A stretch of 64,000 nt of DNA from SAR86 cluster bacterium SAR86B (GCA_905182885.1 CAJJCW010000001.1:439256-503255), one strand, 5' to 3'; shown: positions 3,479-62,126, numbered from the stretch's first letter. Notes: a model not told the origin generated them from the sequence alone. A program made the numbers and translations.

Positions 3479-4445
3479 TTGCCAATCCCAAGTCACATAA
3501 AAGATCATTTATCTATCCCAGTTATAGGCTCACCACTTTTCTTGGTTTCAGGACCAGAGTTAGTAATAGCACAATGCAAAGCAGGAATTATTGGATCTTT
3601 TCCAGCTCTAAATGCAAGACCTCAACATGTTTTAGGTGAGTGGATTACTAGAATTAAAACAGAATTAGCTGAGTATCAAGAACAAAATCCTGATGCTAAA
3701 GGTCGCTCCATTTGCAGTCAATCAAATTTGCCATGCTTCAAATAACAGACTGATGGAAGATATGGCTACTTGTGTTGAACACGAAGTACCGATAATTATC
3801 ACATCCTTAAGACCACCTGCAGAATTAGTAGAAGCAGCCCATAGTTATGGTGGACTTGTATATCATGATGTTATTAATGTTAAACACGCTAAAAAAGCTG
3901 CAGAACAAGGCGTGGATGGTCTGATTTTAGTTTGTGCCGGTGCCGGAGGGCATGCAGGAGCTCTATCTCCTTTTGCTTTATTAAGAGAAGTAAAAGAATG
4001 GTTTGATGGAACAGTTATCTTATCTGGTTCAATTGGAGATGGTTATTCAGTTGCCTCAGCTTTAGCGCTTGGAGCAGATTTTGCCTATATGGGCACACGT
4101 TTTATAGCCACACAAGAAGCCAATGCAGATCAAGGCTACAAACAAATGCTAATTGAAAGCGCCGCAGATGACATAGTACTTTCAAGTCTATTTACTGGAA
4201 TAAGTGGTAACTACTTAAAGCCATCAATTGTAAAAGAAGGGATGGATGCAGATAATCTTCCCGAGGCAGACAAAAGCACTATGAACTTTGGTTCAGGTGG
4301 AAATACTGATGCAAAAGCATGGAAAGATATTTGGGGTTCTGGTCAAGGTATCGGCGGAATTAAAGATGATCCTAGTGTTGCAGACTTAGTAACTAGATTA
4401 AAAGCAGAGTTCATCGAAGCAAAAAATGAGTTTAATCAAAAGTAG
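3479..4445 (+). CDS. Nitronate monooxygenase (2-nitropropane dioxygenase / FabK-like) family, split by a frameshift in this assembly
   Basis: ORFs 3479-3745 and 3693-4445 are consecutive parts of one NMO protein (GSFPALNARP... then APFAVNQI..., CAGAGGHAG, YMGTRF). The frame changes at ~3698-3702 (AAAGG). Confidence 0.8.
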
Positions 4446-5917: not shown

Positions 5918-6282
5918 AAAATTATCCTAGAAAATATTGTCAAGGCTGAGTATACGAACAGTACTCCTATATTTATTATTTCCATAAGACCATCATCTAG
6001 AGCAATAGATTCGTCTGCTATCTTGTAATAGCTACTTGGGCTCGTAACCAGCCATATAACACCAACCATATGAGCAATCATCAATATGGCAATAATCCAA
6101 TTAAGAGGTTGGTTTGTAAAAACGATAAAAGAAGTAAGAATTAAAAAAAAGATCTCGATGGATAAGTACTTGTTGATATTTTCTTTTTTATATAGATATT
6201 TAGCAAGGCTATAGCCATTTTTATAGGTATAAAAGAAAGCGACTGCATAAAGAAAATATAAAAAAGCCAGAAATACGATCAT
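5914..6282 (-). CDS. Hypothetical integral membrane protein (122 aa, about 4 hydrophobic helices)
   Basis: ORF-track ORF. I recognise no family. It lies in the same orientation as the MazG and glycosyltransferase genes upstream. Confidence 0.5.
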   Translation of the reverse strand: MIVFLAFLYFLYAVAFFYTYKNGYSLAKYLYKKENINKYLSIEIFFLILTSFIVFTNQPLNWIIAILMIAHMVGVIWLVTSPSSYYKIADESIALDDGLMEIINIGVLFVYSALTIFSRIIF

Positions 6283-6285
6283 GCT

Positions 6286-6435
6286 TTAGTGATGTGGAGG
6301 TTTCTCATAATCTACTGGAGGAAACTGAGACTTCTCTTTACTCTTTTTATATTTTTCGTACCTAGAAGTAACATCAGCACAGTCATCAGCTGCCGAGGGA
6401 AGTTCTTCTTTTGATTTATTGTCTTTTTCTTCCAT
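6286..6435 (-). CDS. Possible small acidic/basic protein (49 aa)
   Basis: Hand-translated as MEEKDNKSKEELPSAADDCADVTSRYEKYKKSKEKSQFPPVDYEKPPHH*. It fills the gap between the MazG-like gene and the membrane protein, ending 4 nt before the latter's ATG. There is no homology support. Confidence 0.25.
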   Translation of the reverse strand: MEEKDNKSKEELPSAADDCADVTSRYEKYKKSKEKSQFPPVDYEKPPHH

Positions 6436-6461
6436 TGTTTTATCTAAAGATAGTAATTGGC

Positions 6462-6878
6462 TTATAGATCGCCGTCTTTTCTGACTTCACTTCTATCAAC
6501 TTCAAATTTTTCTCCGTACCTGGCTTCTAATTTTTTTTGATTTTCGTTTATTACTTCATAAGGATCTAAACCTAATGATGCACATGCGGTAGTCCAGTAC
6601 CACATAATATCTCCAAGCTCTCTCTTCATATGAAAAATATTATCTTCAGAAGCTGGCTTTCCTTGAAGAACCATTTTCTTAACAATTTCAACAAATTCTC
6701 CAGTCTCGCTTCCAAGACCCAATGCAGCTGTTAATAGTCTTGGCATTTTTATAGAAGAAGATTCTTCAATATTATCAAAGCTCTTTTTAAGAGCATCAAG
6801 ATCAATACTAGGTTCGCTAGTTACCTTGGTAACAAAATCACTATAGGTTGAAAAAAAATCTTTTACTTCTTTACTCAT
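6462..6878 (-). CDS. MazG-like nucleoside-triphosphate pyrophosphohydrolase (single-domain)
   Basis: 138 aa with the all-alpha NTP-PPase signature region EFVEIVKK...ELGDIMWYW. Confidence 0.75.
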   Translation of the reverse strand: MSKEVKDFFSTYSDFVTKVTSEPSIDLDALKKSFDNIEESSSIKMPRLLTAALGLGSETGEFVEIVKKMVLQGKPASEDNIFHMKRELGDIMWYWTTACASLGLDPYEVINENQKKLEARYGEKFEVDRSEVRKDGDL

Positions 6879-6933
6879 CTCATCTCTCCTTAAATATGGT
6901 GTTTAAATAATATCATTCGCTAAATATTTTTCA

Positions 6934-7920
6934 TTAAAAAGGTGAGTTTTTCCATGACAGTGAAGACACAAAGTTAGCCGTTGTGGCCTTATCCTTGTTC
7001 ACTATTTCCCTTTCAACTAAGTTAATGCCTGATAAGAACTCATAATCTTTTAGTGTTCTTTTGTCACCTAAGCCATAAACACCCTCAATTTCACCATTAA
7101 TAACCATTGATAGCTTATTTAAACTTTTCTCTTCTCTTTCATGCCACTTAACTTGTCTATTTCCATCCTCTGTTTCATCCCAGTGAAGCTTTCTTTTTAA
7201 ATCAGAAGTATCAGTATAAAGATGAAATATAGGAACAGCTGGTATATGGAAAATACCAAATCCACGAGTAAAGGCCCTAATCATTAAAGATATTTCTTCA
7301 CCATAAAAGTAGAATTCAGGATCATAGGGAACTTCTTTTACAAAAGCTCCAGGAGCAAAAAGGCAGCCAGCTGCGAGCAGATAGCCATGAGTAATTTCAA
7401 CATCAGTTATTGCTCCTATCTGTCTAGAGAATGAATCTTTTAAGAAAATTGAATCTTCTCTGTAAGCAATAATATGTGTATTGGTATCAGCAGTATCAAG
7501 AGAGTAAGTTCCAGAATTAAAATCCACAATATCAAATGCTCTTGGATAACAGGTAATAATAGGCAGCTTGTGTGAATAAGAATCTACAGATTGAATCTTT
7601 TGCATATAAGACAGCAAATAGGTATCCCATCCTTTTTGAAATTGCATGTGAGAATCAATTTGAAGGTAATAATCTTCATCATTAAAAAATTTTTGAATTC
7701 TATGTCTTGCCCAGCATGGGCCCTCAGATATTTCTGGTTCAACATGGTCATATGAAATCTGATTAGAAAAAGAAAAGATCTCAAGATCTATGGCATGAGA
7801 AGACTGATCACATACCCCAAAGAATAAGTTATCTGGCTTATCTGCATTATCAAATGCCCCCCTGATAGTAGTTTCTAATAAAGGGTCTTGATAAGATGCT
7901 ATTGAAATAAAAATTTTCAT
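6934..7920 (-). CDS. Glycosyltransferase, GlcNAc-transferase-like (Pfam 'GlcNAc' PF11397 / GT60-like by recollection)
   Basis: The N-terminus KIFISIASYQDPLLETTIRGAFDNADKPDNLFFGVCDQ and the DxH-type motif YLQIDSHMQF match that family as I recall it. I prefer the ATG at 7920. The track's TTG at 7989 would overlap the divergent P4H gene. Confidence 0.6.
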   Translation of the reverse strand: MKIFISIASYQDPLLETTIRGAFDNADKPDNLFFGVCDQSSHAIDLEIFSFSNQISYDHVEPEISEGPCWARHRIQKFFNDEDYYLQIDSHMQFQKGWDTYLLSYMQKIQSVDSYSHKLPIITCYPRAFDIVDFNSGTYSLDTADTNTHIIAYREDSIFLKDSFSRQIGAITDVEITHGYLLAAGCLFAPGAFVKEVPYDPEFYFYGEEISLMIRAFTRGFGIFHIPAVPIFHLYTDTSDLKRKLHWDETEDGNRQVKWHEREEKSLNKLSMVINGEIEGVYGLGDKRTLKDYEFLSGINLVEREIVNKDKATTANFVSSLSWKNSPF

Positions 7921-7973
7921 GATTAGAAGATAACAATAGAGACAAATCAATAATTTGCAAATATAATTTTTAA

Positions 7974-8597
7974 ATGACCATGAAACCAAAACAAATTTCG
8001 GAAAACGTCACCTTATTTTCTATCGATCCTCTTGTTTATGTTGTATCAGATTTTTTATCCTCTGACGAGTGCGCATCCTTTATTAAGGTTGGGTCGGGTA
8101 AGATGGAAAGAGCTACAGTCATAACCGATTCAGAGCACCAGTTTCATGATAGTAGAACCAATAGCTATGCTTGGATACAGCATGATGCGAGCGATATAAT
8201 TCATGAGGTAAGTAAAAGATTCTCTATTCTAGTTAAAATGCCAATCAATAATGCAGAGCAGTTTCAGCTAGTTCATTATGGTCCAGGAACTGAGTACAAA
8301 CCTCATTTTGATGCTTTTGATAAAAGTACGGAAGAGGGAAGGAACAATTGGTTTCCCGGAGGTCAGAGAATGGTAACTGCCTTGGCTTATTTAAATGACG
8401 TCGAAGATGGAGGGGCAACAGATTTCCCAGATATTGGTGTTTCGATAAAACCCAACAAAGGCGATGTAGTCGTTTTCCATAATTGCAAAGATGGTAGTTC
8501 TGATATTAATCCTAATTCACTTCATGGCGGATCGCCTGTTATCTCGGGTGAAAAATGGGCTGTAAATCTATGGTTTAGACAAGAAGCCATTTATTAA
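7974..8597 (+). CDS. Prolyl 4-hydroxylase-type 2-oxoglutarate/Fe(II) dioxygenase (P4Hc domain)
   Basis: 207 aa. The HxD...H facial triad (KPHFDAF ... LHGGSPV) and the 2OG-binding Lys (GEKWAVNLWF) are present. Confidence 0.85.
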   Translation: MTMKPKQISENVTLFSIDPLVYVVSDFLSSDECASFIKVGSGKMERATVITDSEHQFHDSRTNSYAWIQHDASDIIHEVSKRFSILVKMPINNAEQFQLVHYGPGTEYKPHFDAFDKSTEEGRNNWFPGGQRMVTALAYLNDVEDGGATDFPDIGVSIKPNKGDVVVFHNCKDGSSDINPNSLHGGSPVISGEKWAVNLWFRQEAIY

Positions 8598-8649
8598 GAT
8601 AACTTTAATTTTTATCTAGATTTTTTCTAAATTTAATTATATTATTCAA

Positions 8650-8734
8650 ACAACTGCAAGGGGTGGTCAATTGACCTGAGATCTTCACGGAAACCCTTTG
8701 AACCTGATCCATACAATAATGGCGGAGGAATCGC
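8650..8734 (+). promoter_or_regulatory. TPP (THI-box) riboswitch
   Basis: The sequence reads ...caaGGGGTGgtcaattgaCCTGAGAtcttcacggaaACCCTTTGAACCTGATCcatacAATAATGgcGGAGGAAtcgcATG. It contains the conserved CUGAGA, ACCCUUUGAACCUGAUC and AUAAUG cores. The SD (GGAGGA) sits inside the 3' half, about 7 nt before the receptor ATG. Coordinates are +/-2 nt. Confidence 0.85.
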
Positions 8735-10848
8735 ATGAATATTATTAAAAATAGAATTGTTTTTTTATTATCTTTTTTATTATGTTTGGTTAGCCCATGG
8801 CTGGCCTCACAAACAGTTGAGGAAATCATTGTAAAAGGTGATTGGCGACAAATTTCAATTGAAAAGGAAGATTCAAGCATCATCGTTCTTGATGAAGAGC
8901 TAATCAAATCTCAACCAATTAAGCATTTTGAAATGCTGTCTTACCTAATACCTAATTTGAACTTTGCTGCTAGTGACTCAAGGGCTCGTTATTTTCAAAT
9001 TAGAGGGATTGGAGAAAGAGGTGGCTATGAGGGCACACCAAATTCATCAGTTGGTTTTTTGATCGATGATATTGATTATTCAGGGCAAGGTGGAATTGCT
9101 ACCACTTTTGATGTAGACCAAATTGAAGTTCACAGAGGCCCGCAGGGCTCAAGAATAGGAGCTAATGCTTTAGCTGGATTAATCTATATTAAAACAAAGG
9201 ATCCAACAGAAGAGTTTGAAGGTACAAGTGAAGTCACTATTGGTGATTATGGAGTATTGAATTCTGGAGTAGCATTTGGAGGCCCTTTGGACCAAAACAA
9301 GGATATAACCTATAGAATCGCATTGCGAAAAGATTATTCAAATGGTTTTAGAAAAAATGTATATCTAAATAAGTCTGACACCTCCAAGAAAGATGAAAGC
9401 ACTTTAAGATTAAAAGTTAATTGGAAGGCGAGTGATAAAACCTCTATTAAATTTCTAGTTACAGAAATTGATATGAATGACCCTGCTGATATCTGGACCA
9501 TAGATGATAGTCTTAATACTCTCTCAGATAGACCTGGAATGGATTCACAAAAAACAAATGCATACGGCTTAAAAATATTCCATAGATTTAATAAATTTGA
9601 GTTACAAAGTTTAACAAGCATCACTGATACCAATGTTATTTTTAGTTACGATGCTGATTGGGGTAACTCTGAATCTCATGCGCCATACACATATGATTAT
9701 TTTTCAGAAACCTTAAGAAATAGAGAATCATTTAGTCAAGAATTTAGGGTGGTTTCAAACCCTGCAGATCTTGCCTCAGACTTTCCTGCTGAATGGGTTG
9801 TGGGGGTCAGTTATTCTGATATCAATGAATCAAATTTAAAAAATGATGATGGTGTTTATGGTGATCCCTCTGATCCTTATGGGCCATATGCTAGTGAATC
9901 TTCTTCTTCAAGCAAATATAACTCAGAGAATCTATCAGTTTTCGGTAACCTAGATTACTTTATTAATGAGACGACAAAGATATCTATTGGAGCTAGATCT
10001 GAAGATTGGGATGCAAGTTATTCAGATTCTCTTGGAGAATCTTTTAATCCTTCTAAAAGAATGTCAGGTGGAAAAGTTTCATTAGTAAAAACCTTAATCA
10101 ATGACAGTACTATTTTTACAAGTATTGCTAAGGGTTACAAGCAAGGTGGATTCAATCTAGGCCTAGGTCTTGCTCCGATTCACAAAATAGAAATATCTAT
10201 TATGATCCTGAGTTCCTGACGAATTATGAGATGGGGATTAATACAAAACTATTAAACTCAAAATTAAATATAGGAGCTGTAATATTTTACTCAGACAGGG
10301 AAGATCAACAAGTTTCAATTTCAACTCAAGTTGACCCGAGTGACCCGAATACCTTTTCATATCTGACACAAAATGCTGCAGAGGGCATAAATAAAGGCCT
10401 AGAATTAAGCATGGATATGGAATTAACTGATTCCCTTAATGTTTTCGCTAATCTTGGAATACTAAAGACTGAGATAAAGAATTGGAAATCTAGACCGGAT
10501 CTTGAGGGAAGAGCTCAAGCACATGCACCTGAAAGAAGTTTTGCTTTAGGTTTTAGTTGGAAGCCAACCGAAAAGACTTACCTTTCTCTTGATGTAACCG
10601 GAAAAAGCAGTTTTTATTATTCAGATTCACATAATAATAAATCAGACTCATATGCCCTAACTAATATTAACTATGGCTACCAAAAAAATAATTGGAACTA
10701 TGAAATATGGGTTCGTAACATATTCGATACTTATTACTCTACAAGAGGTTTCTATTTCGGGAATGAGGCTCCAAATTTTGAAGACACTCTTTATAAAAGA
10801 CATGGAGACCCTAGACATTTAGGACTTTCTGTTCGATATGATTTTTGA
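8735..10848 (+). CDS. TonB-dependent outer-membrane receptor (thiamine-related by context), split by a frameshift
   Basis: It has a signal peptide, a plug domain (IEVHRGPQGSRIGANALAGLIYIKTKDP) and beta-barrel repeats. The terminal LSVRYDF ends in an aromatic residue. ORFs 8735-10219 and 10231-10848 join across ~10172-10182 (...GGFNLGLGLAP|DSQNRNIYYDPEFLTNYEMG). Confidence 0.85.
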
Positions 10849-11435
10849 CTTAATTGACCAATACTGGATGGAGTTTCTGGCAGTGGTATCAGCTATTGTC
10901 TATCTATTGCTTAGCTGTAAGACAAGATATAAGATGCTGGTTTGCAGCCATTCTCAGTTCTTTTCTATATTTTTTTATCATGTTTTCAGCTGGCCTATAC
11001 ATGGAAGCTGGATTACAAATATTTTATATACTTATGGCTGTTTATGGATGGTCTCAATGGAGAGAGGAGAGCACAGCAAATATAAAGCTCTCTGTTAAAA
11101 CCTGGAAGCCAATTAACCATCTCTTCTCAATCTCTTTAATATTACTTCTTGCTTACGCCTCTGGTCTCATCCTTGAAAAATTTACAAATGCAGTTTTCCC
11201 ATTTATCGATGCTTTAACTACATGGGGAGCAATAGTGGCTACTTATATGGTTGCAAAGAAATTGTTAGAGAATTGGATCTATTGGTTTGTGATTGATTCT
11301 ATTTCTATTTTCTTGTTTATGTCTAGAGGCCTTGTTCTAACATCTATTTTATTTTTTATATATCTCATTATTATATATTTTGGTTACAAGTCATGGGCTA
11401 GAATTAAAGACAATGGAAGCATTAAACCTATCTAA
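10838..11435 (+). CDS. PnuC-family inner-membrane transporter (PnuT-like), split by a frameshift
   Basis: ORF 10838-11098 supplies the N-terminus (DQYWMEFLAVVSAIVYLLLS). ORF 10854-11435 supplies the rest (RQDIRCWFAAILSSFLYF...LMAVYGWSQW, the PnuC hallmark). The shift lies at ~10900-10920. The gene overlaps the receptor stop by 11 nt. Confidence 0.75.
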
Positions 11436-12246
11436 AAGAATTGAATCTATTTCTTCTGAAATAGAAATCATAAAAAAACTTAAAACCGGCCCGGTATCTG
11501 AAATATATTTGTGTACGTTAAGAAATATCAAAGCAGTATTAAGAGTGGATTATTCATGGGCTTCTTTTTTACCCTTTGATAGAAATAGAGAAATAAGGAT
11601 TATTCATGGTGTTGAGCACTTAGAACTTGCGCCTAAAATTTTATATCATGATGCTTCTAACGGGGTTCTTATCTGGAGATATATTGAAGGAGTAGAGTTT
11701 AATTTTATATCTGGATCTCGAGCCGATCTAATCACAGGGCTTGGAATGAATTTAATAAAACTTCATCAGTCAAAGCTTCCTGATATAGATATCGCATCAT
11801 TTAAGACTTTTATTGCTGCATATGAAATTCTTCTTCAAGAAGAGTCAAAAGAGACGTTAATTAATAAAGGTTTCAAGCTTTACAATGATATATGCGAAGA
11901 CGGGACAGATTATGTTCTTTCCCATAATGATCTTAATAAATCAAACCTTCTAATAGGGGATAAATTTTATTTCTTAGATTGGGAGTATGCTGGGCTTAAC
12001 CATCCTTACTTTGATATAGCAACACTCTGCCACTCATTAAATCTATCAGATGAAAATACCCAGTTATTATGGAATGCTTATTCCAATGATGGCTCTTTAA
12101 TAGATGTAAAAAAATTAGATCAGTGGATTCTTTTTATTCAATATCTAGACCTTTTTTGGAGAAAATCGATAGAAAAATTAGCACCTATTTATAAAGATAA
12201 AATGGATATATCCGCTCTAGAAAAAAAACTGTCTTTATTAAGTTAA
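11413..12246 (+). CDS. ThiK-like kinase (choline-kinase/APH phosphotransferase fold)
   Basis: The catalytic loop LSHNDLNKSNLLI and the Mg-binding FLDWEYAG are present, and the length (~277 aa) is similar to thiamine kinase. Its operon position is after the riboswitch, receptor and PnuC-like gene. The start could also be the TTG at 11380. Confidence 0.65.
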   Translation: MEALNLSKRIESISSEIEIIKKLKTGPVSEIYLCTLRNIKAVLRVDYSWASFLPFDRNREIRIIHGVEHLELAPKILYHDASNGVLIWRYIEGVEFNFISGSRADLITGLGMNLIKLHQSKLPDIDIASFKTFIAAYEILLQEESKETLINKGFKLYNDICEDGTDYVLSHNDLNKSNLLIGDKFYFLDWEYAGLNHPYFDIATLCHSLNLSDENTQLLWNAYSNDGSLIDVKKLDQWILFIQYLDLFWRKSIEKLAPIYKDKMDISALEKKLSLLS

Positions 12247-13130: not shown

Positions 13131-13846
13131 ATGCAAAAAAAAATCGTTATTATTGGAGCAAGCGGGGCAATAGGCAAAGCTTTTGTAGATTTGTATTCAA
13201 AAATTGATACCGTTGAGCATGTATTCTCTTTTTCTAAAACACAAATAGACTTTAGCTCAAGCAAGGTAAAAAGCTTTTCCATAGATATAGAGGATGAGAT
13301 TAGCGTAAAGAATGCAGCAGAGGTAATCGGCACCCAAAAAATTGACATAGTTATAGTCGCAACTGGAATTCTTCATAATAAAGATTTTGGTCCTGAAAAA
13401 AGTATTAAAGATTTAGATCCAGATAATTTTCTCAAAGTATTAAAAATTAATACCATTGGCCCAGCAATTATAGGAAAACATTTCCTCCCATTACTTACTA
13501 AAGATCAAAAAAGTGTTTTTGCTTTCTTGAGTGCAAGGGTCGGTAGCATCTCAGAGAATAAGCTAGGAGGCTGGTATTCTTATAGGGCTAGTAAAACAGC
13601 ACTTAATCAGGTTGTTAAAAACTTTAGCATAGAGGTTTGTAGAACAAATCCAAATGCAGTTATTCTAGGCCTTCAGCCTGGGACAGTGGAAAGTAATTTA
13701 AGTGAGCCTTTTAAAAAAAATGTCGCTAGAGAAAATTATTCACACCAGAATATAGCGCTGAAATGCTTGCTAAGGTAATTCTTAATTCCACTCAGAAAAA
13801 CTCCGGAGACTTGTTGAGTTGGGACGGTGAGATTATTAATCCTTAA
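13131..13846 (+). CDS. Short-chain dehydrogenase/reductase (C-factor/CsgA-like SDR), C-terminus split by a frameshift
   Basis: IIGASGAIGKA and YRASKTA (YxxxK) are present. After ...PFKKNVARE the natural continuation KLFTPEYSAEMLAKVILNSTQKNSGDLLSWDGEIINP* lies in the -1 frame. The shift is in an A4 run at 13732-13735, and the track ORF stops early at 13778. Confidence 0.8.
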
Positions 13847-13910: not shown

Positions 13911-14660
13911 TTATGCATTAGATTCTTTAACTGCAACATGCCAGATAACTAAACCAAATAGAATCTTGTTAACAAAGTCAGCAAGGTTATATACGATGTT
14001 TAAGTTAGAAGCATATACGCCTTCGCCACCCATTAGGTAACCGGCAGCATATCCAGCTGGGTATATAGCCCAACCAACTACTATAATTAACATCATAGTA
14101 TTGTATGCAGACATAACAGCAGGACTTGCAGTACTTACAGCAGCTTTTCCTTCACCCAAGTATAGAGTGTGGATCATGTATAACCATGCAGCCATTGCAA
14201 CAACAAATGCAGGTAATGCTCCCATAATTCCAGCTTCACCCATGTATCCAAATAAAAGCATTACTAGCGAACCGCCAAGCAATTTCTTGAATAATGAACC
14301 TGCAACATTAGTACATGCAGCAAGAATTAAGTAGAACTCAACCATCAGTAATGGAACAGTTAATAACCAATCAATATATCTAAATACTGTTGGCGTTTCA
14401 CCAGTCTCGATCCAAACACCTCTCATATAGAGATAATGCCAGAATGCTATACCAGTCACTAAACCAGAAACTGTAAGCGATGTTTTCCACTTAGCACTAA
14501 CTTGGTCTCTTTCAACAAAGAAGAAAACAGTAGCAGCAAGAAGAGCAGCAGTCACAAGCCAAAACGAAACACCTGTTAAGTCACTAGCCTGAAGGTCGCC
14601 ACCACTAGCAGCAAATGAAGGAAGTGCAATAACACTACCTAGGATTAATAATAATTTCAT
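13911..14660 (-). CDS. Proteorhodopsin, green-tuned proton-pump type
   Basis: 249 aa with a signal peptide and 7 TM helices. RYIDWLLTVPLLMVEF carries D97/T101/E108 (DTE) and Leu105 (green tuning). H75 lies in FWHY. The Schiff-base Lys lies in DFVNKILFG (K232 of this ORF). It is very close to SAR86-type PR as I recall it. Confidence 0.97.
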   Translation of the reverse strand: MKLLLILGSVIALPSFAASGGDLQASDLTGVSFWLVTAALLAATVFFFVERDQVSAKWKTSLTVSGLVTGIAFWHYLYMRGVWIETGETPTVFRYIDWLLTVPLLMVEFYLILAACTNVAGSLFKKLLGGSLVMLLFGYMGEAGIMGALPAFVVAMAAWLYMIHTLYLGEGKAAVSTASPAVMSAYNTMMLIIVVGWAIYPAGYAAGYLMGGEGVYASNLNIVYNLADFVNKILFGLVIWHVAVKESNA

Positions 14661-14793: not shown

Positions 14794-17093
14794 TTAAAAT
14801 CTTGCGCTTAAAGAGACTCCAAGCATTAAAGGAGGTCCCGCTACATAAGTTGGTAATCCAAGAACATCTCCACCAACGTTACCACCATCAATTAAAAACT
14901 CTTCATCCATTATATTTTTAAAGTAGATTGAGGTACTTACGTTCTCTGAAATGGCTACATTTACATTTAGGTTTAGTAAGCCATAACCTTCTTGATAGGT
15001 ATCTAGATCATTACTTTCTTCAAAATAAACATCATCTTGGTAGGTATAAGCAAGAATATAGTTAGCCATGCCTCTATCTAATGAGATCCCAATAGAGTAG
15101 TTAGATTCAGGAGCAAGTCTCCAAGTATTTCCAGCATAGTCAAAATCCTTATCATCAATTGTATTTTGTCCAAGCTTCGCATTTTGATAGCCGTAAGAAC
15201 CGAATATTTTGACTGAATCAAAAATTACATAATTCCCATAAAACTCATAACCATCTATTGTTGCTGTTTCCATTACTGAGTATGAAGTAAACCCAGTATT
15301 ATAGTTAAGCTGCGCAACAGTATAATTTGAAAAGTCGTAGCTAAATATAGCTCCAGATAGGAATAACTTACTATCAACATAGTTAAAACCAAGATCCTGA
15401 GATTCTATTGTTTCAGCAGGGGTAACTCCTGTATAACTTACATAAGGACTTATCCTTCCTTCTGAAGAGGTGATATAAAAAGATAAGCTATCTGAATAGT
15501 TGTAAACACTTGATAGTTTTAACAAAGGCTCACCTTCATCTTTATGTGAATTTTTTTGCTGAAGAACGGCATCCTGACATGTGCCTGTTACTAGAGGCCT
15601 ATTACATTCTTTTGCATCAAAAACAACAGCTGTATCATTTGAAGAGTCTCTATAACCAACAGTAAAGCTAAGGTCATCAGTTAAGTGGTATGTAGCATCT
15701 ACATAAAAAGATGATGAATCTTGTGATTCAGTTTGAACTTTAGGTTGAATATAGGGACTAACGTCAACTGGAAGGTTGTAAATTGATCCATCTGGAAGAG
15801 GTACTGGAATTGTATTGAAGGGATTATTCTGCAATGTAGAGGCAAAGAGAGATCTTAATTGTTGAATTGGGAAGTTATCTCCATAAACATTGCTAGAAGA
15901 AAATGCACCTCTTCCACTTTGCAAAATCGACAGCAATCCATTGGCTGCTGCAAATTGCCCATCAAATGTTAGAAAAGCTAACAGATAGGGCTCAGCAAAT
16001 TCAATGCCTAGGTAATCATACGTTTCTTTATCTGTCTTAGTGTAACCAACCATTAGATCTAACTTATCATTGCTAAATTGGTATTGGGCTTCAAAGCCAG
16101 AAAGGTCGGCATTATTAGTTTTACCCGCTTCCATAATATTTAAATAAGAGCCGTCAGTATCAATAAAGCTAAAGGTATTTGACTGAGTATCAAAGAAACT
16201 CAACGAAGCAGAAGAGTTTTTATTAATAGAGTAATTCAAAAAATATTGCTGAGTTAGCATTTCTCTATCAGTTTTAGAGTCTTGAGTATTTCTAAAATCA
16301 ACTTCGCCATATGGTGATCTATCCTGATTTTCTGAGAAAATGTAAGCACTCTTATATCCAACACCTGGCAGTTTGTTATTTTCTTGGTTGATAACTACGT
16401 CTAAAATGTCAAATTATCAGTAATTTCATTTGTGTAGCTTAATCTTAATGCTGAGACATTACCTCTACCATTTACATTATCACCATCACCTATATTTTTT
16501 GTATATCCTTTTATATCACTATTAAAAGTAGATATTCTCAATGAAGATGAGTCAGTTAAGGAGATATTATTAACACTTTGCAGATCTCTACTATTGAAAT
16601 TACCGAAGCCCATCGAAAGAGAGCCATAAGTAGAGCCTAGTTCAGCCTTATTTGTAACAACATTGAATGCTCCAGCCGCAGAATCAACTCCGAATGTAGA
16701 TGGTTGTGGTCCTTTTAAGATTTCCACTCTAGTTAAGTCATACAAAGCAAAAGAGGACATAGTGGTTGATGACATTGTTAAACCATTCATAAATCTACCA
16801 ATTCTACTAACTAAGAAACCTGAATCAGCACCAACTCCTCTTATTGAAAGACTTGGATTAATAACATCCTCTTCTTGAACGGTAAAATTTGGAACATAAT
16901 AACTAAGCTGACCTAGCTCAGTAATTTTTTGGTCCTCCATGAAGTCTTCGTTATAAAGATTCATAGTAGTCCCAATATCAAGGATATTTTTCTCTGTCTT
17001 TTCTGCAGTTACTATTACTTCCTCAACATTCTGTTGAGCTGAAAGCACTATAGACATTGAAATACATACTGCTAGTAGATAATTAGTTTTCAT
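14794..17093 (-). CDS. TonB-dependent outer-membrane receptor, split by a frameshift
   Basis: ATG at 17093 (MKTNYLLAVCISMSIVLSAQQ signal). The plug contains VEILKGPQPSTFGVDSAAGAFNVV. The C-terminal ...LGVSLSARF ends in an aromatic residue. The frame of ORF 14794-16260 stays open upstream to ~16400 and joins ORF 16401-17165 with one base change at ~16405-16415 (...ITDN|FDILDVVINQ...). Confidence 0.85.
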
Positions 17094-17207
17094 AAAATAG
17101 TTATTAGTTAGAATCGGGAAATTATAGTCCCTATTAAAAGCATATAAAATTGTTTTTTTTAGCACATAAAGTTTTGCTTAATAATCAATGTTGAGTATGA
17201 TTTAGAT

Positions 17208-48728: not shown

Positions 48729-50006
48729 ATGAATCTCACTGAAATTAAAATCAAGCCAATAAGCGAACTTGTTGAAATAGCAACTGAATTGGGGCTAGAA
48801 GATGTTGGCAGACTTAAAAAACAAGAAATAATATTTAAAATTTTTAAACATAAAGCATCTGAAGGTGTTGAGATATTTGGTGGCGGAGTATTAGAGATTT
48901 TGAATGATGGTTTTGGTTTCTTACGTTCACCAGAAGGTTCTTACTGTGCCGGAGAAGATGATATTTACGTATCACCAAATCAGATAAGAAAATTTAGTTT
49001 AAGAAAAGGTGACACTGTTGCCGGTAAAATTAGAACACCTAAAGAAAAAGAAAGGTATTTTGCTTTAATCCAGGTTGATACCATTAATGGCGAAGATCCA
49101 TCTAAAACAAAAAATAAGATTCTTTTTGAAAACTTAACTCCATTATTTCCTAATGAAAGATTAATACTTGAACAAGGTTCAGGTTCTAAAGAAGACCTTT
49201 CTTCAAGAATAATTGATTTAATAGCTCCAATTGGAAAAGGCCAGCGTGGCTTAATAGTATCTCCACCTAAAGCAGGTAAGACACTCATGCTTCAAAGTAT
49301 TGCTCACTCAATAAAAAGCAACAATCCTGAGGTAGAGCTAATTGTTTTACTAATCGATGAAAGGCCTGAAGAAGTTACAGAGATGTCTAGAACAGTTAAG
49401 GGAGAAGTTGTAGCTAGTACCTTCGATGAGCCGCCTACTAGGCATGTCCAAGTAGCTAATATGGTTATTGAAAAAGCAAAAAGGCTCGTGGAGCATAAGA
49501 AAGATGTAGTAATTTTATTAGATTCAATTACTCGTTTAGGAAGAGCTTACAACTCAGTCCAACCATCATCAGGGAAGATATTAAGTGGTGGAGTTGACTC
49601 AAATGCTCTTGAAAGACCTAAAAGATTCTTTGGTGCTGCTAGAAACCTGGAAGAAGGTGGAAGTTTAACAATTATAGCTACTGCTCTTGTAGATACCGGT
49701 TCTAAGATGGACGAGGTTATTTATGAAGAATTTAAAGGCACGGGAAACATGGAAATTCATCTTGAAAGAAAGATAGCTGAAAAAAGAATCTATCCAGCCA
49801 TCAATATAAGAAGGTCTGGAACTCGAAGAGAGGACTTGCTAACAGCCGAAGATGAGCTTCAAAGAATGTGGGTTCTTAGAAAAATTCTTGATGATATGGA
49901 AGATGCGCAATCAATACAGTTCTTGATTGACAGACTAAAGTCATTTAAAACAAATGATGAGTTCTTTACTTCAATGAAAGGTGGAGCTTCTAAGAAGACT
50001 AAATAA
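48729..50006 (+). CDS. rho: Transcription termination factor Rho
   Basis: 425 aa. It has the N-terminal Rho_N domain, a CSD-like RNA-binding domain (FGFLR) and a RecA-type ATPase (PPKAGKT). Confidence 0.97.
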
Positions 50007-50722
50007 ATTCTTTAGCTTTCTTTAGCATTGATTCGTCGGAAGGGCTCTCAGCTACATCGATATTCATATCTAAAACTTCATTACCAAAATTTTTTCTTAT
50101 CTTGTCTTTAATTCTTTGAGAGGAAACAATAAATATTTTTTCTAAAAGAGTTTTGCGGTCAATAGCTTTGTGTATAAAAGAGAAGGTTAAGTAGTTATAT
50201 ATCAAAACTATTTTTGGCCCCTGATTTACACTAGCAACCTCAAAATCTGAATAAATCAGATCATAGCAAGCAATCTCATCAATATTATTTTTAAGGATTT
50301 TCTGTAAAGTTCTATTTGAGTTGGTGCCGCAGAATAATAAATTTCTACCTGGATATTCTTTCAAGTATTAGTTCCGCTAGAAACTCAGATGATGGCTGAT
50401 TGGGTAATATAGAACTCATTCCCTTGTCTTCAATAATTTTTTTTGTTGCTAGGCCAATAGAAAATATATTTGATTGTATTTTTTTAAGATCAATTTTAGT
50501 TTTTAAAATCTCTAGACCATAAGAAGCGGATGCCTGGCTCGTAAAAATAATATTGCTATATGATTGAAGGGATTCTAGCTTTGTTCTCCAGCTCTCAATA
50601 ACTTCTTTGCTTGATACAGGCGTAATTTTTGATAGATGAAGATTGGTTAAATCTATTTTTTCCTTGGCACAAAGAGCATTTATATTTTGTGATAGATTTT
50701 TTGGCCTAGTATTAATTATCAC
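49999..50722 (-). CDS. hemD: Uroporphyrinogen-III synthase, split by a frameshift
   Basis: ORFs 50345-50722 and 49999-50364 are the N- and C-halves of a HemD-like protein downstream of hemC (..[11 protein letters not shown]|..[17 protein letters not shown]..). The shift lies at ~50350-50362. Sequence conservation is low, as usual for HemD. Confidence 0.7.
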
Positions 50723-60066: not shown

Positions 60067-61800
60067 TTGAAATTATCTGGTGCTGACATGCTTATGCACG
60101 CTCTTCATGATGAAGGCGTTGAGTTAATCTATGGCTATCCGGGTGGAACAGCCCTCCATGTGTATGATGCTATTTTTAGACAAGATAAAATTGAACATAT
60201 TCTTGTGAGGCACGAGCAAGGCGCTACTCATGCAGCTGACGGTTATGCAAGAGCGACGGGCAAGCCAGGAGTGGTTCTGGTAACCTCTGGACCTGGGGCA
60301 ACAAACACCATTACTGGAATCGCAACAGCCTTCATGGACTCTATTCCAATGGTTGTTCTATCTTGTCAGGTCGCAAGTCATTTAATTGGAACAGATGCTT
60401 TTCAAGAAACCGATATGATTGGGGTGTCAAGGCCAATTGTTAAACATAGCTATACTGTTTTTGATGCCAAAGACATTCCAAAAACAATTAAAGAAGCATT
60501 TTATGTTGCTACATCGGGAAGACCAGGGCCCGTTGTAATTGATATACCAAAGGACATGACAGCCCCTGAAAATTTATTTGATTATCAATATCCTAATGAG
60601 GTAAATATCAGATCTTACAACCCGCCCATTAATCCTGATCAAAGTCAGGTTGAAAGAGCGGTAGATGCAATAATTAAATCAAGTCGACCTGTTATTTATG
60701 CAGGCGGAGGCGCTATCGCAAGTGATGCAGAAGAGATCCTTTATGAACTAAATGAGATTATGGATGCCCCTGTTACTAATACTCTAATGGGCCTTGGTAT
60801 TTATCCAGCAACCCATCATCGTTTCTTGGGTATGCTCGGAATGCATGGCACTTATCAAGCTAATATGGCAATGCATAACGCAGATTTAATAATCGCAGTT
60901 GGTGCAAGATTTGACGATAGAATTACTAATTCACCCTCTAAGTTTGCTCCCAAGGCCAAAGTTATACATTTAGATGTAGATCATTCTTCTGTATCAAAAA
61001 TTATTGAAGCTAATGTTGCAGTGTTTGGTCAAGTAAAAAATTCATTACAAGCAATAAAAGAAACTTTAAAAGAAAGAATACAAGACTATGACAAAGGAGT
61101 ATTAGAGCCTTGGCATGGAGAGATTAAAGAATGGAAATCTATGCATGGACTAAATTATGAGCTTTATAAAGATGAATCAGATAGTCATCAAATTCTACCT
61201 CAAGCAGTTGTTCAGCATGTTTATCAGATAACCAATGGAGATGCATACGTTACGTCTGATGTAGGACAGCATCAGATGTTTGCTGCTCAGTATTATCACT
61301 TTGACAAGCCTAGAAGATGGATAAACTCTGGTGGGTTAGGGACAATGGGCTTTGGATTGCCATCTGCAATGGGAGTAAAGCTAGCTTTTCCTGATGAAGA
61401 GGTTCTTTGTATTACTGGAGAGGGAAGTATCCAAATGTGTATACAAGAGCTCTCTACCTGCCTGCAATACAACCTACCTATAAAAATTATAAATATTAAT
61501 AATGAAGCCCTTGGAATGGTCAAGCAGTGGCAAGATATGAATTATGGAGGAAGACACTCAGAAAGCACATACAAAAACTCTCTGCCTGACTTCGTAAAAC
61601 TAGCAGAATCTTATGGTCATGTGGGTATAAAAATTGAAAAGAATTCTGAATTAAAGTCCGGTCTTGAAAAAGCTTTTGCTATGAAAGATAAATTAGTTTT
61701 TGTTGATATTTATGTTGACCCATCTGAACACGTTTACCCAATGCTTGTGGCGAACAATAGCTTAGAAGATATGTGGTTATCAAAGGATAAAAAAACATGA
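60067..61800 (+). CDS. ilvI: Acetolactate synthase (acetohydroxyacid synthase) large subunit
   Basis: 577 aa with a TTG start. YGYPGG and the TPP-binding GGLGTMGFGLPSAMG...NN motif are present. Confidence 0.93.
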   Translation: MKLSGADMLMHALHDEGVELIYGYPGGTALHVYDAIFRQDKIEHILVRHEQGATHAADGYARATGKPGVVLVTSGPGATNTITGIATAFMDSIPMVVLSCQVASHLIGTDAFQETDMIGVSRPIVKHSYTVFDAKDIPKTIKEAFYVATSGRPGPVVIDIPKDMTAPENLFDYQYPNEVNIRSYNPPINPDQSQVERAVDAIIKSSRPVIYAGGGAIASDAEEILYELNEIMDAPVTNTLMGLGIYPATHHRFLGMLGMHGTYQANMAMHNADLIIAVGARFDDRITNSPSKFAPKAKVIHLDVDHSSVSKIIEANVAVFGQVKNSLQAIKETLKERIQDYDKGVLEPWHGEIKEWKSMHGLNYELYKDESDSHQILPQAVVQHVYQITNGDAYVTSDVGQHQMFAAQYYHFDKPRRWINSGGLGTMGFGLPSAMGVKLAFPDEEVLCITGEGSIQMCIQELSTCLQYNLPIKIININNEALGMVKQWQDMNYGGRHSESTYKNSLPDFVKLAESYGHVGIKIEKNSELKSGLEKAFAMKDKLVFVDIYVDPSEHVYPMLVANNSLEDMWLSKDKKT

Positions 61801-62126
61801 TCAAAAGAAAGTTGATATTGATTATGGAAAATAAACCTGGCGCCTTGGTAAGGGTCATTGGCTTATTTCATCAAAGAGGGTATAACATCGAAAATCTCCA
61901 CGTGGATGTTGTTGAAGATTTTGCACCATATAAAAGTATCGAAGATAAGTTAAATACTAAATTTGAACCAAATCAAATTTCGAGACTTACCATTCAAACA
62001 ACCGTCTCAGACATACTAATGAGACAAATACTAAGACAGCTAAATAGACTTATTGATGTTATAGCTGTCAGCAACGAAGAAGCAACATACTTTAAAGGAG
62101 TTCTGTTAGATGAAAATTTATTATGA
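61797..62126 (+). CDS. ilvH: Acetolactate synthase small (regulatory) subunit, ACT-domain-only short form
   Basis: 109 aa. [29 protein letters not shown] is the IlvH/IlvN ACT signature. There is an ~18-aa insertion, and no ALS_ss_C domain follows. Confidence 0.75.

Follow-up and report, generated by a model that had tools for sequence, protein, structure and literature searches.

The closest characterized system to the locus described here is the OMthi-pnuT-tnr3 system of the Bacteroidetes, worked out in Bacteroides thetaiotaomicron (BT2390, BT2396-97; Costliow and Degnan 2017, PMC5613172) and arranged as a single operon in most genomes (PMC5613172). The thiamine pyrophosphate (TPP) riboswitches of the B. 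thetaiotaomicron transporters directly adjoin the start codons, and their action is on translation only (bioRxiv 10.1101/867226). The PnuT component is a facilitated-diffusion thiamine channel that rejects thiamine monophosphate (TMP) and TPP, and a cytoplasmic kinase is needed as a trap (PMC5749112). Control of omr1 and pnuT by THI elements was predicted by Rodionov et al. 2002, as that work is cited in PMC2771747 and PMC5749112. Here, we analyze a window of 64,000 nucleotides from SAR86 cluster bacterium SAR86B (GCA_905182885.1, CAJJCW010000001.1:439256-503255), in which a TPP (THI-box) riboswitch leads three genes, for a TonB-dependent outer-membrane receptor, a Pnu-family permease and a kinase with the choline-kinase/APH fold (Table 1; positions are counted from the first letter of the window).

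Members of SAR86 rank among the most abundant heterotrophs in surface seawater and have been reported as vitamin B1 auxotrophs (PMC3358033, PMC10881298), with genomes described as devoid of thiamine biosynthesis genes, including those for assembly of the precursors (PMC3358033). Vitamin transporters were not identifiable in the 2012 SAR86 genome paper, and the sole entry in later work is a putative receptor, omr1. The TPP aptamer of the present locus ends on the receptor start codon, the three genes overlap, and the arrangement is conserved. We consider it likely, and hold this with good confidence, that the locus is a riboswitch-controlled operon for scavenging thiamine (vitamin B1) in a SAR86-type marine gammaproteobacterium, that it is off under intracellular TPP, and that the two frameshifts in its genes are errors of the record.

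Table 1. Features of the thiamine locus, with positions in the window
Feature	Position	Strand	Basis or remark
TPP (THI-box) riboswitch aptamer	8649-8748	+	RF00059, RNAalifold consensus, pair list
GGAGGA Shine-Dalgarno-like hexamer	8724-8729	+	5 nt before ATG 8735
TonB-dependent outer-membrane receptor, omr1/OMthi-type context	8735-10848	+	704 aa after frame repair
Receptor frameshift, 1-nt deletion specific to this assembly	10174-10175	+	L001/L002 alignment
PnuT-type Pnu-family permease	10838-11435	+	198 aa once extra T at 10911 is removed
Permease frameshift, 1-nt insertion (extra T) specific to this assembly	10911	+	L001/L002 alignment
Choline-kinase/APH-fold small-molecule kinase, predicted thiamine trap	11413-12246	+	277 aa

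Riboswitch, receptor and permease

A search of the whole 64-kb window with the Rfam model RF00059 returned a full-length match (model positions 1-105 of 105) at the start of the receptor gene, with 58.9 bits and an E value of 5.3e-9 against a gathering score of 54.3 bits. An earlier sequence-only reading, made without database searches, had proposed a THI element from its conserved cores and had suggested this search; the cores are all where it placed them, with GGGGTG at 8660-8665, CTGAGA at 8676-8681, ACCCTTTGAACCTGATC at 8693-8709, GGAGGAA at 8724-8730 and the ATG at 8735. The helices P1, P2, P3, P3a, P4 and P5 were all recovered by RNAalifold on 13 SAR86 copies, in which P3 shows a few compensatory pair changes and the other pairs are invariant. 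The single-sequence folding z-score of the region is unremarkable (-0.72). In the riboswitch homologues, the cores CUGAGA and ACCCUUUGAACCUGAUC and helices P1-P5 are kept.

The genes behind the aptamer overlap by 11 nt at the receptor/permease junction (10838-10848, which includes the receptor stop codon) and by 23 nt at the permease/kinase junction (11413-11435); the overlaps, the gene descriptions and the HNDLNKSN and DWEYAG motifs given by the sequence-only reading all stand. As assembled, the receptor is divided into two open reading frames (ORFs), 8735-10219 and 10231-10848. It carries the N-terminal Plug domain (PF07715, 44.3 bits) and the beta-barrel (PF00593, with 57.4 bits for the C-terminal and 25.1 bits for the N-terminal fragment) of a TonB-dependent receptor. 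After repair, the protein of 704 aa matches TIGR01783 from end to end with 135.7 bits, under the subfamily cutoff of 223.5. PMC2771747 and PMC10881298 define the omr1/OMthi group by a TPP riboswitch and colocalized pnuT, and the window receptor has both, the riboswitch upstream and pnuT next to it. Such a receptor would import scarce thiamine over the outer membrane using TonB energy.

The permease matches PF04973 (NMN_transporter) with 145.4 bits against a gathering score of 27.3, within an ORF at 10854-11435; its true start, the ATG at 10838, lies in a different frame from this ORF. Once repaired, it also scores 83.7 bits against TIGR01528, the NCBIfam PnuC equivalog, whose cutoff is 42.45. 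The Pnu motif WxxW(x)3D/N (defined in PMC5749112), located in transmembrane helix 6 (TM6), reads WIYWFVID in the repaired protein, which thus has Asp at the D/N position as does Shewanella woodyi PnuT, whereas the PnuC of N. mucosa has Asn. In S. woodyi PnuT this Asp is needed for thiamine binding, and D166A abolishes it (PMC5749112). A permease of the PnuT type would let thiamine diffuse through the inner membrane.

Conservation of the arrangement was assessed by a scan in which an alignment of the kinase family was the query and each GTDB species was represented by a single genome. The scan gave 69 loci, about 45 of them in SAR86 metagenome-assembled genomes (MAGs) or single-cell genomes; the others belong to 'Woeseia'-labelled MAGs, Porticoccaceae/HTCC2207, Pseudomaricurvus and further Gammaproteobacteria, followed by a tail of distant Firmicutes and Mollicutes. 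The kinase is syntenic behind a receptor and PnuT in about 55 loci. By tblastn, all gammaproteobacterial loci with enough flank show the order receptor, permease, kinase; the one exception, L062, is from a Cellvibrionaceae MAG and contains only a distant kinase relative. The Firmicutes relatives have neither receptor nor permease. Just 5' of the receptor, RF00059 scores above its gathering score in 49 of the 50 loci with an intact upstream region, and the remaining locus (SAR86E) gives 51.7 bits. The riboswitch and the three genes are therefore found together in about 50 species-level genomes of SAR86 and other marine Gammaproteobacteria, which answers the concern, raised with the sequence-only reading, that the kinase might lie outside any thiamine context. 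Because the riboswitch and the gene order hold even where kinase identity has fallen to 24-30%, these comparisons indicate that the module is real and thiamine-linked. The uptake-and-trapping operon under a THI element that had been proposed is in this way supported by the riboswitch score, the Pfam families and the synteny.

A further small gene accompanies the module. It encodes 82-85 aa of the YkoF-related thiamine-binding-protein family (PF07615, 27 bits against a gathering score of 21) and stands between receptor and permease in loci outside SAR86 (L054, 4007-4264; L055, L063, L064, L067-L070 and L072), and divergently, just upstream of the riboswitch, in several SAR86 clades (L003, 2934-3182 on the - strand; L019, L027, L030, L038 and L047). 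We looked for it in the window and in its two nearest comparison contigs, L001 and L002, and it is absent from all three. In Pseudomaricurvus hydrocarbonicus (L054), the kinase gene is followed by a second TPP riboswitch (5926-6038) and then by thiC and thiG (6210-10433); the module there stands beside genes of de novo synthesis and is therefore not restricted to auxotrophs. We also note SAR86-type receptor-PnuT-kinase genes on two short contigs labelled as a Pelagibacterales MAG (L016) and a Methanobacteriota archaeon MAG (L053), labels that probably reflect binning contamination in public MAGs.

A probable ribosome site within the aptamer

The helical core of the aptamer runs from the P1 5' strand (U8655-C8657) to the P1 3' strand (G8733-C8734-A8735), the last base of which is the first base of the receptor start codon. 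The 3' strand of P4 is A8726-G8727-G8728, within the GGAGGA hexamer, and on this the Rfam alignment and the RNAalifold consensus agree. The Shine-Dalgarno sequence had been described as lying in the 3' half of the aptamer, about 7 nt from the ATG; its place is confirmed, with GGAGG and the start codon inside P4 and P1, and the spacer is corrected to 5 nt. The SAR86-type design leaves no stretch that could serve as a separate expression platform.

Comparison of the homologues points to how this layout may have come about. The aptamers that abut a start codon (SAR86 and the 'Woeseia'-labelled group) all read GCGGAGGAA, with the ATG 4 nt later in most, whereas those that lie 55-100 nt from the start (Porticoccaceae, Pseudomaricurvus and others) retain the canonical GCGUAGG(G/A)A. 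The U-to-G change in the start-abutting copies makes one P4 pair non-canonical in the Rfam alignment, and that pair is lost; because the change has this cost and yet creates GGAGG, it suggests that a strand of the aptamer was recruited as a ribosome-binding site. When TPP is plentiful, it would lock the aptamer, and the folded aptamer would cover the landing site of the ribosome, both Shine-Dalgarno and AUG, because P4 holds the AGG of GGAGG and P1 holds the A of AUG. Translation of the receptor would then stop, and the shut-off would be passed to permease and kinase by translational coupling at the overlapping junctions. The layout of the aptamer fits such a direct translational shut-off by TPP.

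Several observations weigh against this account of the switch or against the part of it assigned to GGAGG. The association of the G/U variant with aptamer position is a contrast of essentially two clades, and so of few independent events. Nearest-neighbor folding in the absence of ligand already gives P4 and a P1-like helix; in the unconstrained ensemble, the AGG of the Shine-Dalgarno has an unpaired probability of 0.06-0.08, and the P1-like helix is extended by pairing of 8643-8648 with 8736-8741. Folding with and without P1, the check suggested with the sequence-only reading, gave no ON/OFF pair, as no alternative ON structure or anti-sequestor was predicted. Without an anti-sequestor, thermodynamic folding is unable to tell the two states apart, and the switch must therefore depend on ligand-dependent tertiary stabilization. 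A second point concerns the host. Scanning of 20 nt upstream of the window genes found a Shine-Dalgarno-like motif (GGAG, GAGG or AGGA) at only 7 of 42, and the organism seems to lean little on Shine-Dalgarno pairing; given this count, the Shine-Dalgarno part of the mechanism is something we infer, and occlusion of the start codon may outweigh the sequestering of GGAGG. Finally, no sigma-70-like promoter was found at 8598-8650 on the + strand. A search for a terminator downstream of the kinase was likewise negative, and the promoter and terminator scan counts are not above those of shuffled sequence.

There are three side observations. The extension of P1 amounts to six possible pairs, UAUUCA with UGAAUA, reaches over the UG of the start codon and the codon after it, and is limited to the clade of the window, outside the SAR86-wide consensus. 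Most leaders in the window are merely AT-rich. In two SAR86 genomes (L050 and L051), a tRNA gene (2144-2217) precedes the riboswitch at a distance of about 45 nt, and there is therefore scant space for a dedicated promoter. If it acts as proposed, the ribosome site embedded in the aptamer would be a compact case of riboswitch economy in a streamlined genome.

Frameshifts in the record and the genomic setting

Both the receptor and the permease had been noted to carry a frameshift in this assembly, and we located the two sites by alignment with L001 (97.5% DNA identity) and L002 (91%), related metagenomic contigs recovered via the kinase. At the receptor site, the window reads gct-ccg where L001 has gctCccg and L002 has gctGccg (cc against ccc or gcc); at the permease site, it reads tgcTtagc where the relatives have tgc-tagc or tac-tcgc. 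Both contigs are open through both sites, and L002 encodes an intact 704-aa receptor and an intact 198-aa permease, to which the window proteins are 97% and 96% identical, respectively. After repair, comparison of the window with L002 gives a ratio of nonsynonymous to synonymous substitution (dN/dS) of 0.04 for the receptor and of 0.075 for the permease.

Two adjacent genes of one operon that are both broken could be read as pseudogenes of an uptake system that is decaying in this strain, with the frameshifts real. We regard this as very unlikely, since the same kind of damage extends to unrelated genes. Over the 12.8 kb shared with L001 and L002, the window has six private indels; apart from the two above, an unrelated SDR gene (13131-13778) is cut short by a 1-nt deletion at 13735, a 2-nt insertion at 16407-16408 splits a second TonB receptor (14794-16260 and 16401-17165), and the remaining two (6879 and 17704) lie beside further genes. 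In other parts of the window, hemD is divided, and both ilvH and an NMO gene are cut short (sites 3693-4445, 49999-50722 and 61797-62126), so that housekeeping genes are affected too. The reading frames of receptor and permease are otherwise perfectly kept, their dN/dS is low (0.04-0.08), and L001 is intact at both sites. Taken together, these comparisons indicate that both frameshifts are almost certainly sequencing or assembly errors and not biology, which gives the earlier remark exact coordinates and puts the frameshifts down to assembly noise. Programmed frameshifting was rejected along with pseudogenization, in view of the same kind of indel in unrelated neighboring genes. Private indels of 1-2 nt occur about every 2 kb relative to the two close relatives, and with such indels across the record any gene call in it needs frame repair.

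The window has 35% G+C. A proteorhodopsin gene (249 aa, 13911-14660, - strand) lies 1.7 kb downstream of the operon and adjoins the second TonB-dependent receptor; the syntenic genes of L001 and L002 match Bac_rhodopsin, and the pairing of proteorhodopsin with a TonB receptor is typical of SAR86. The window is assigned to a SAR86-type genome because its closest relatives are labelled SAR86.

The kinase and comparison with known systems

The third protein belongs to the choline kinase/APH superfamily by its Pfam matches (PF01633, Choline_kinase, 40.3 bits against 29; PF01636, APH, 37.1 bits against 23.2; gathering scores second), its catalytic motifs and its bilobal fold, modeled by AlphaFold2 with a pLDDT of 90.7. 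With this, PF07715/PF00593, PF04973 and PF01636, the families that had been expected for the three proteins, all match. The residues H171, D173, N178, D189, W190 and Y192 are invariant in the family (HxDxxxxN and DWEY), and both HNDLNKSN and DWEYAG are present in the window protein. A TTG at 11380 could also serve as the start but is not conserved. The kinase scores 81 bits against the NCBIfam GntI model, far under the cutoff, and no thiamine pyrophosphokinase (TPK; tnr3/ThiN) family is among the Pfam and NCBIfam matches of the three operon proteins. We note that the kinase evolves much faster than its partners, with 80% amino acid identity to L002 against 96-97% and a dN/dS of 0.22 against 0.04-0.075.

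The label 'ThiK-like' given by the sequence-only reading survives at the level of fold and superfamily and does not survive beyond it. The kinase reaches 57.9 bits against the ThiK equivalog TIGR02721, whose cutoff is 299.45, and 40 of the 40 family members tested match this model only below cutoff. Its identity to E. coli ThiK is 18-22% (BLASTP E 0.002), and hhalign of the kinase family against the same protein gives 48% probability (E 2e-4). The nearest solved structure is the choline kinase LicA (4r7b; Foldseek TM 0.76, probability 1.00, 20% identity), which phmmer also links to the kinase with an E value of 3e-7. By these comparisons, the kinase forms a separate clade of the superfamily of ThiK and should not be filed as ThiK. 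The distance from ThiK and the nearness to LicA count against a thiamine kinase, and the thiamine role of the clade is inferred from genomic context. A further point against it is that ThiL, which would be required to convert TMP to TPP, was not found within the 64-kb window by tblastn. The tblastn search, made with E. coli ThiL, ThiC, ThiE, ThiF, ThiG and ThiH, found none of them in the window, a result with little bearing on the whole genome. The supplements of the SAR86 isolate paper hold no entries for thiL, thiN or thiK.

Phosphorylation of thiamine is nevertheless chemically plausible, since the vitamin resembles choline in bearing a hydroxyethyl group on a cationic center. The kinase would phosphorylate the hydroxyethyl group of thiamine to give TMP, which would be trapped because PnuT does not accept TMP, and a ThiL encoded elsewhere, needed with TMP as the product, would complete TPP. 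A bolder form of this proposal is that the kinase founds a thiamine kinase family distinct from ThiK and TPK, which would be the obligatory trap for B1 that enters through PnuT, in SAR86 as well as in several further marine Gammaproteobacteria of high abundance (Porticoccaceae/SAR92, Cellvibrionales and 'Woeseia'-labelled MAGs) and would be paired with a minimal TPP riboswitch whose P4 and P1 serve as the ribosome-binding site; we see the chances for and against this as evenly balanced. Should it be true, and should the genomes have no ThiL, the enzyme or a further partner must add the second phosphate.

The same evidence can be turned toward a different cargo. The operon might handle a vitamer or precursor related to thiamine (hydroxyethylthiazole/cHET, HMP/AmMP or a degradation product) instead of the intact vitamin. 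TPP riboswitches also govern the precursor transporters thiV, thiXYZ and cytX (PMC10881298), the specificity of omr1 is marked as unclear in recent marine literature (PMC12442306), the kinase is far from ThiK, the hydroxyethyl group targeted by choline-kinase-like enzymes is also present on hydroxyethylthiazole, and the family of the YkoF-type partner binds both HMP and thiamine (PMC3020362). We nevertheless consider this cargo unlikely: the PnuT proteins tested to date carry thiamine (PMC5749112; PMC5613172), the reported lack of biosynthesis genes in SAR86 includes those that would assemble a precursor (PMC3358033), and no thiE, thiD-like or thiM-like genes were seen near the SAR86 operons, in a search that covered thiE, thiC, thiG and thiL.

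It is more improbable still that only the receptor is under the riboswitch, the permease being an ordinary PnuC for nicotinamide riboside and the kinase an enzyme for choline, ethanolamine or another alcohol. The permease does pass the PnuC equivalog, the best Pfam match and the best solved structure of the kinase are Choline_kinase and LicA, and the distant relatives in Firmicutes and Mollicutes occur outside a thiamine context. However, the three genes overlap and have kept their place together downstream of a TPP riboswitch even between deeply diverged genomes, the permease has the Asp of S. woodyi PnuT where N. mucosa PnuC has Asn, and there is no NAD-related gene or riboswitch nearby. Thiamine uptake and trapping by all three proteins thus remains the preferred reading.

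For this reading, the locus and its approximately 50 homologues would make up a complete and testable route from the outer membrane to the cytoplasm, of which the kinase is the component of truly unproven activity. The route would sharpen B1 genotype calls in marine metagenomics, which are now scored by models for thiK, thiN and omr1 that the kinase fails. Current understanding is not overturned by the locus. Bittner et al. 2024 (PMC10881298) report a TPP riboswitch close to omr1 in two clusters of SAR86 MAGs, and the window locus is very probably this feature; in the accessible text of such omr1 and riboswitch reports, we saw neither PnuT and the kinase as partners nor the Shine-Dalgarno within the aptamer nor the breadth of the synteny. 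For the kinase and the YkoF-like protein as partners and for the embedded Shine-Dalgarno, we found no earlier description in the accessible text of the literature searched, which did not include Rodionov et al. 2002 itself.

Among single components, the permease shares with S. woodyi PnuT (Jaehme et al. 2018, PMC5749112) the Pnu family, seven core transmembrane helices and the Asp of WxxW(x)3D. The S. woodyi protein works by facilitated diffusion and relies on a cytoplasmic kinase trap; transport by the SAR86 permease is predicted, the likeness being one of family and motif. E. coli ThiK (YcfN; TIGR02721) has in common with the SAR86 kinase the superfamily, HxDxxxxN/DWEYAG and the predicted reaction (thiamine + ATP to TMP), but its gene has no link to a riboswitch, a receptor or pnuT. 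The substrate of LicA from Streptococcus pneumoniae (PDB 4R77/4R7B) likewise carries a hydroxyethyl group on a cationic nitrogen center, whereas the role of LicA is the phosphocholine decoration of teichoic acids, with no thiamine context.

As a whole, the locus is closest to OMthi-pnuT-tnr3, with which it shares a TPP riboswitch, a TonB receptor, a PnuT channel and a cytoplasmic enzyme that phosphorylates thiamine, a role that is predicted on the SAR86 side. The likeness of the two receptors is one of context. The start-adjacent riboswitches of B. thetaiotaomicron match the placement of the SAR86 aptamer, and there the action on translation has been shown experimentally. The Bacteroidetes trap is the pyrophosphokinase tnr3/TPK, which makes TPP in one step, whereas the SAR86 trap would be an unrelated kinase of the choline-kinase/APH fold, expected to make TMP and to need ThiL, in a gammaproteobacterial host. 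The locus is a real and conserved system of a largely understood kind, which differs from the Bacteroidetes operon by the class of its trapping enzyme and by the lineage of its host.

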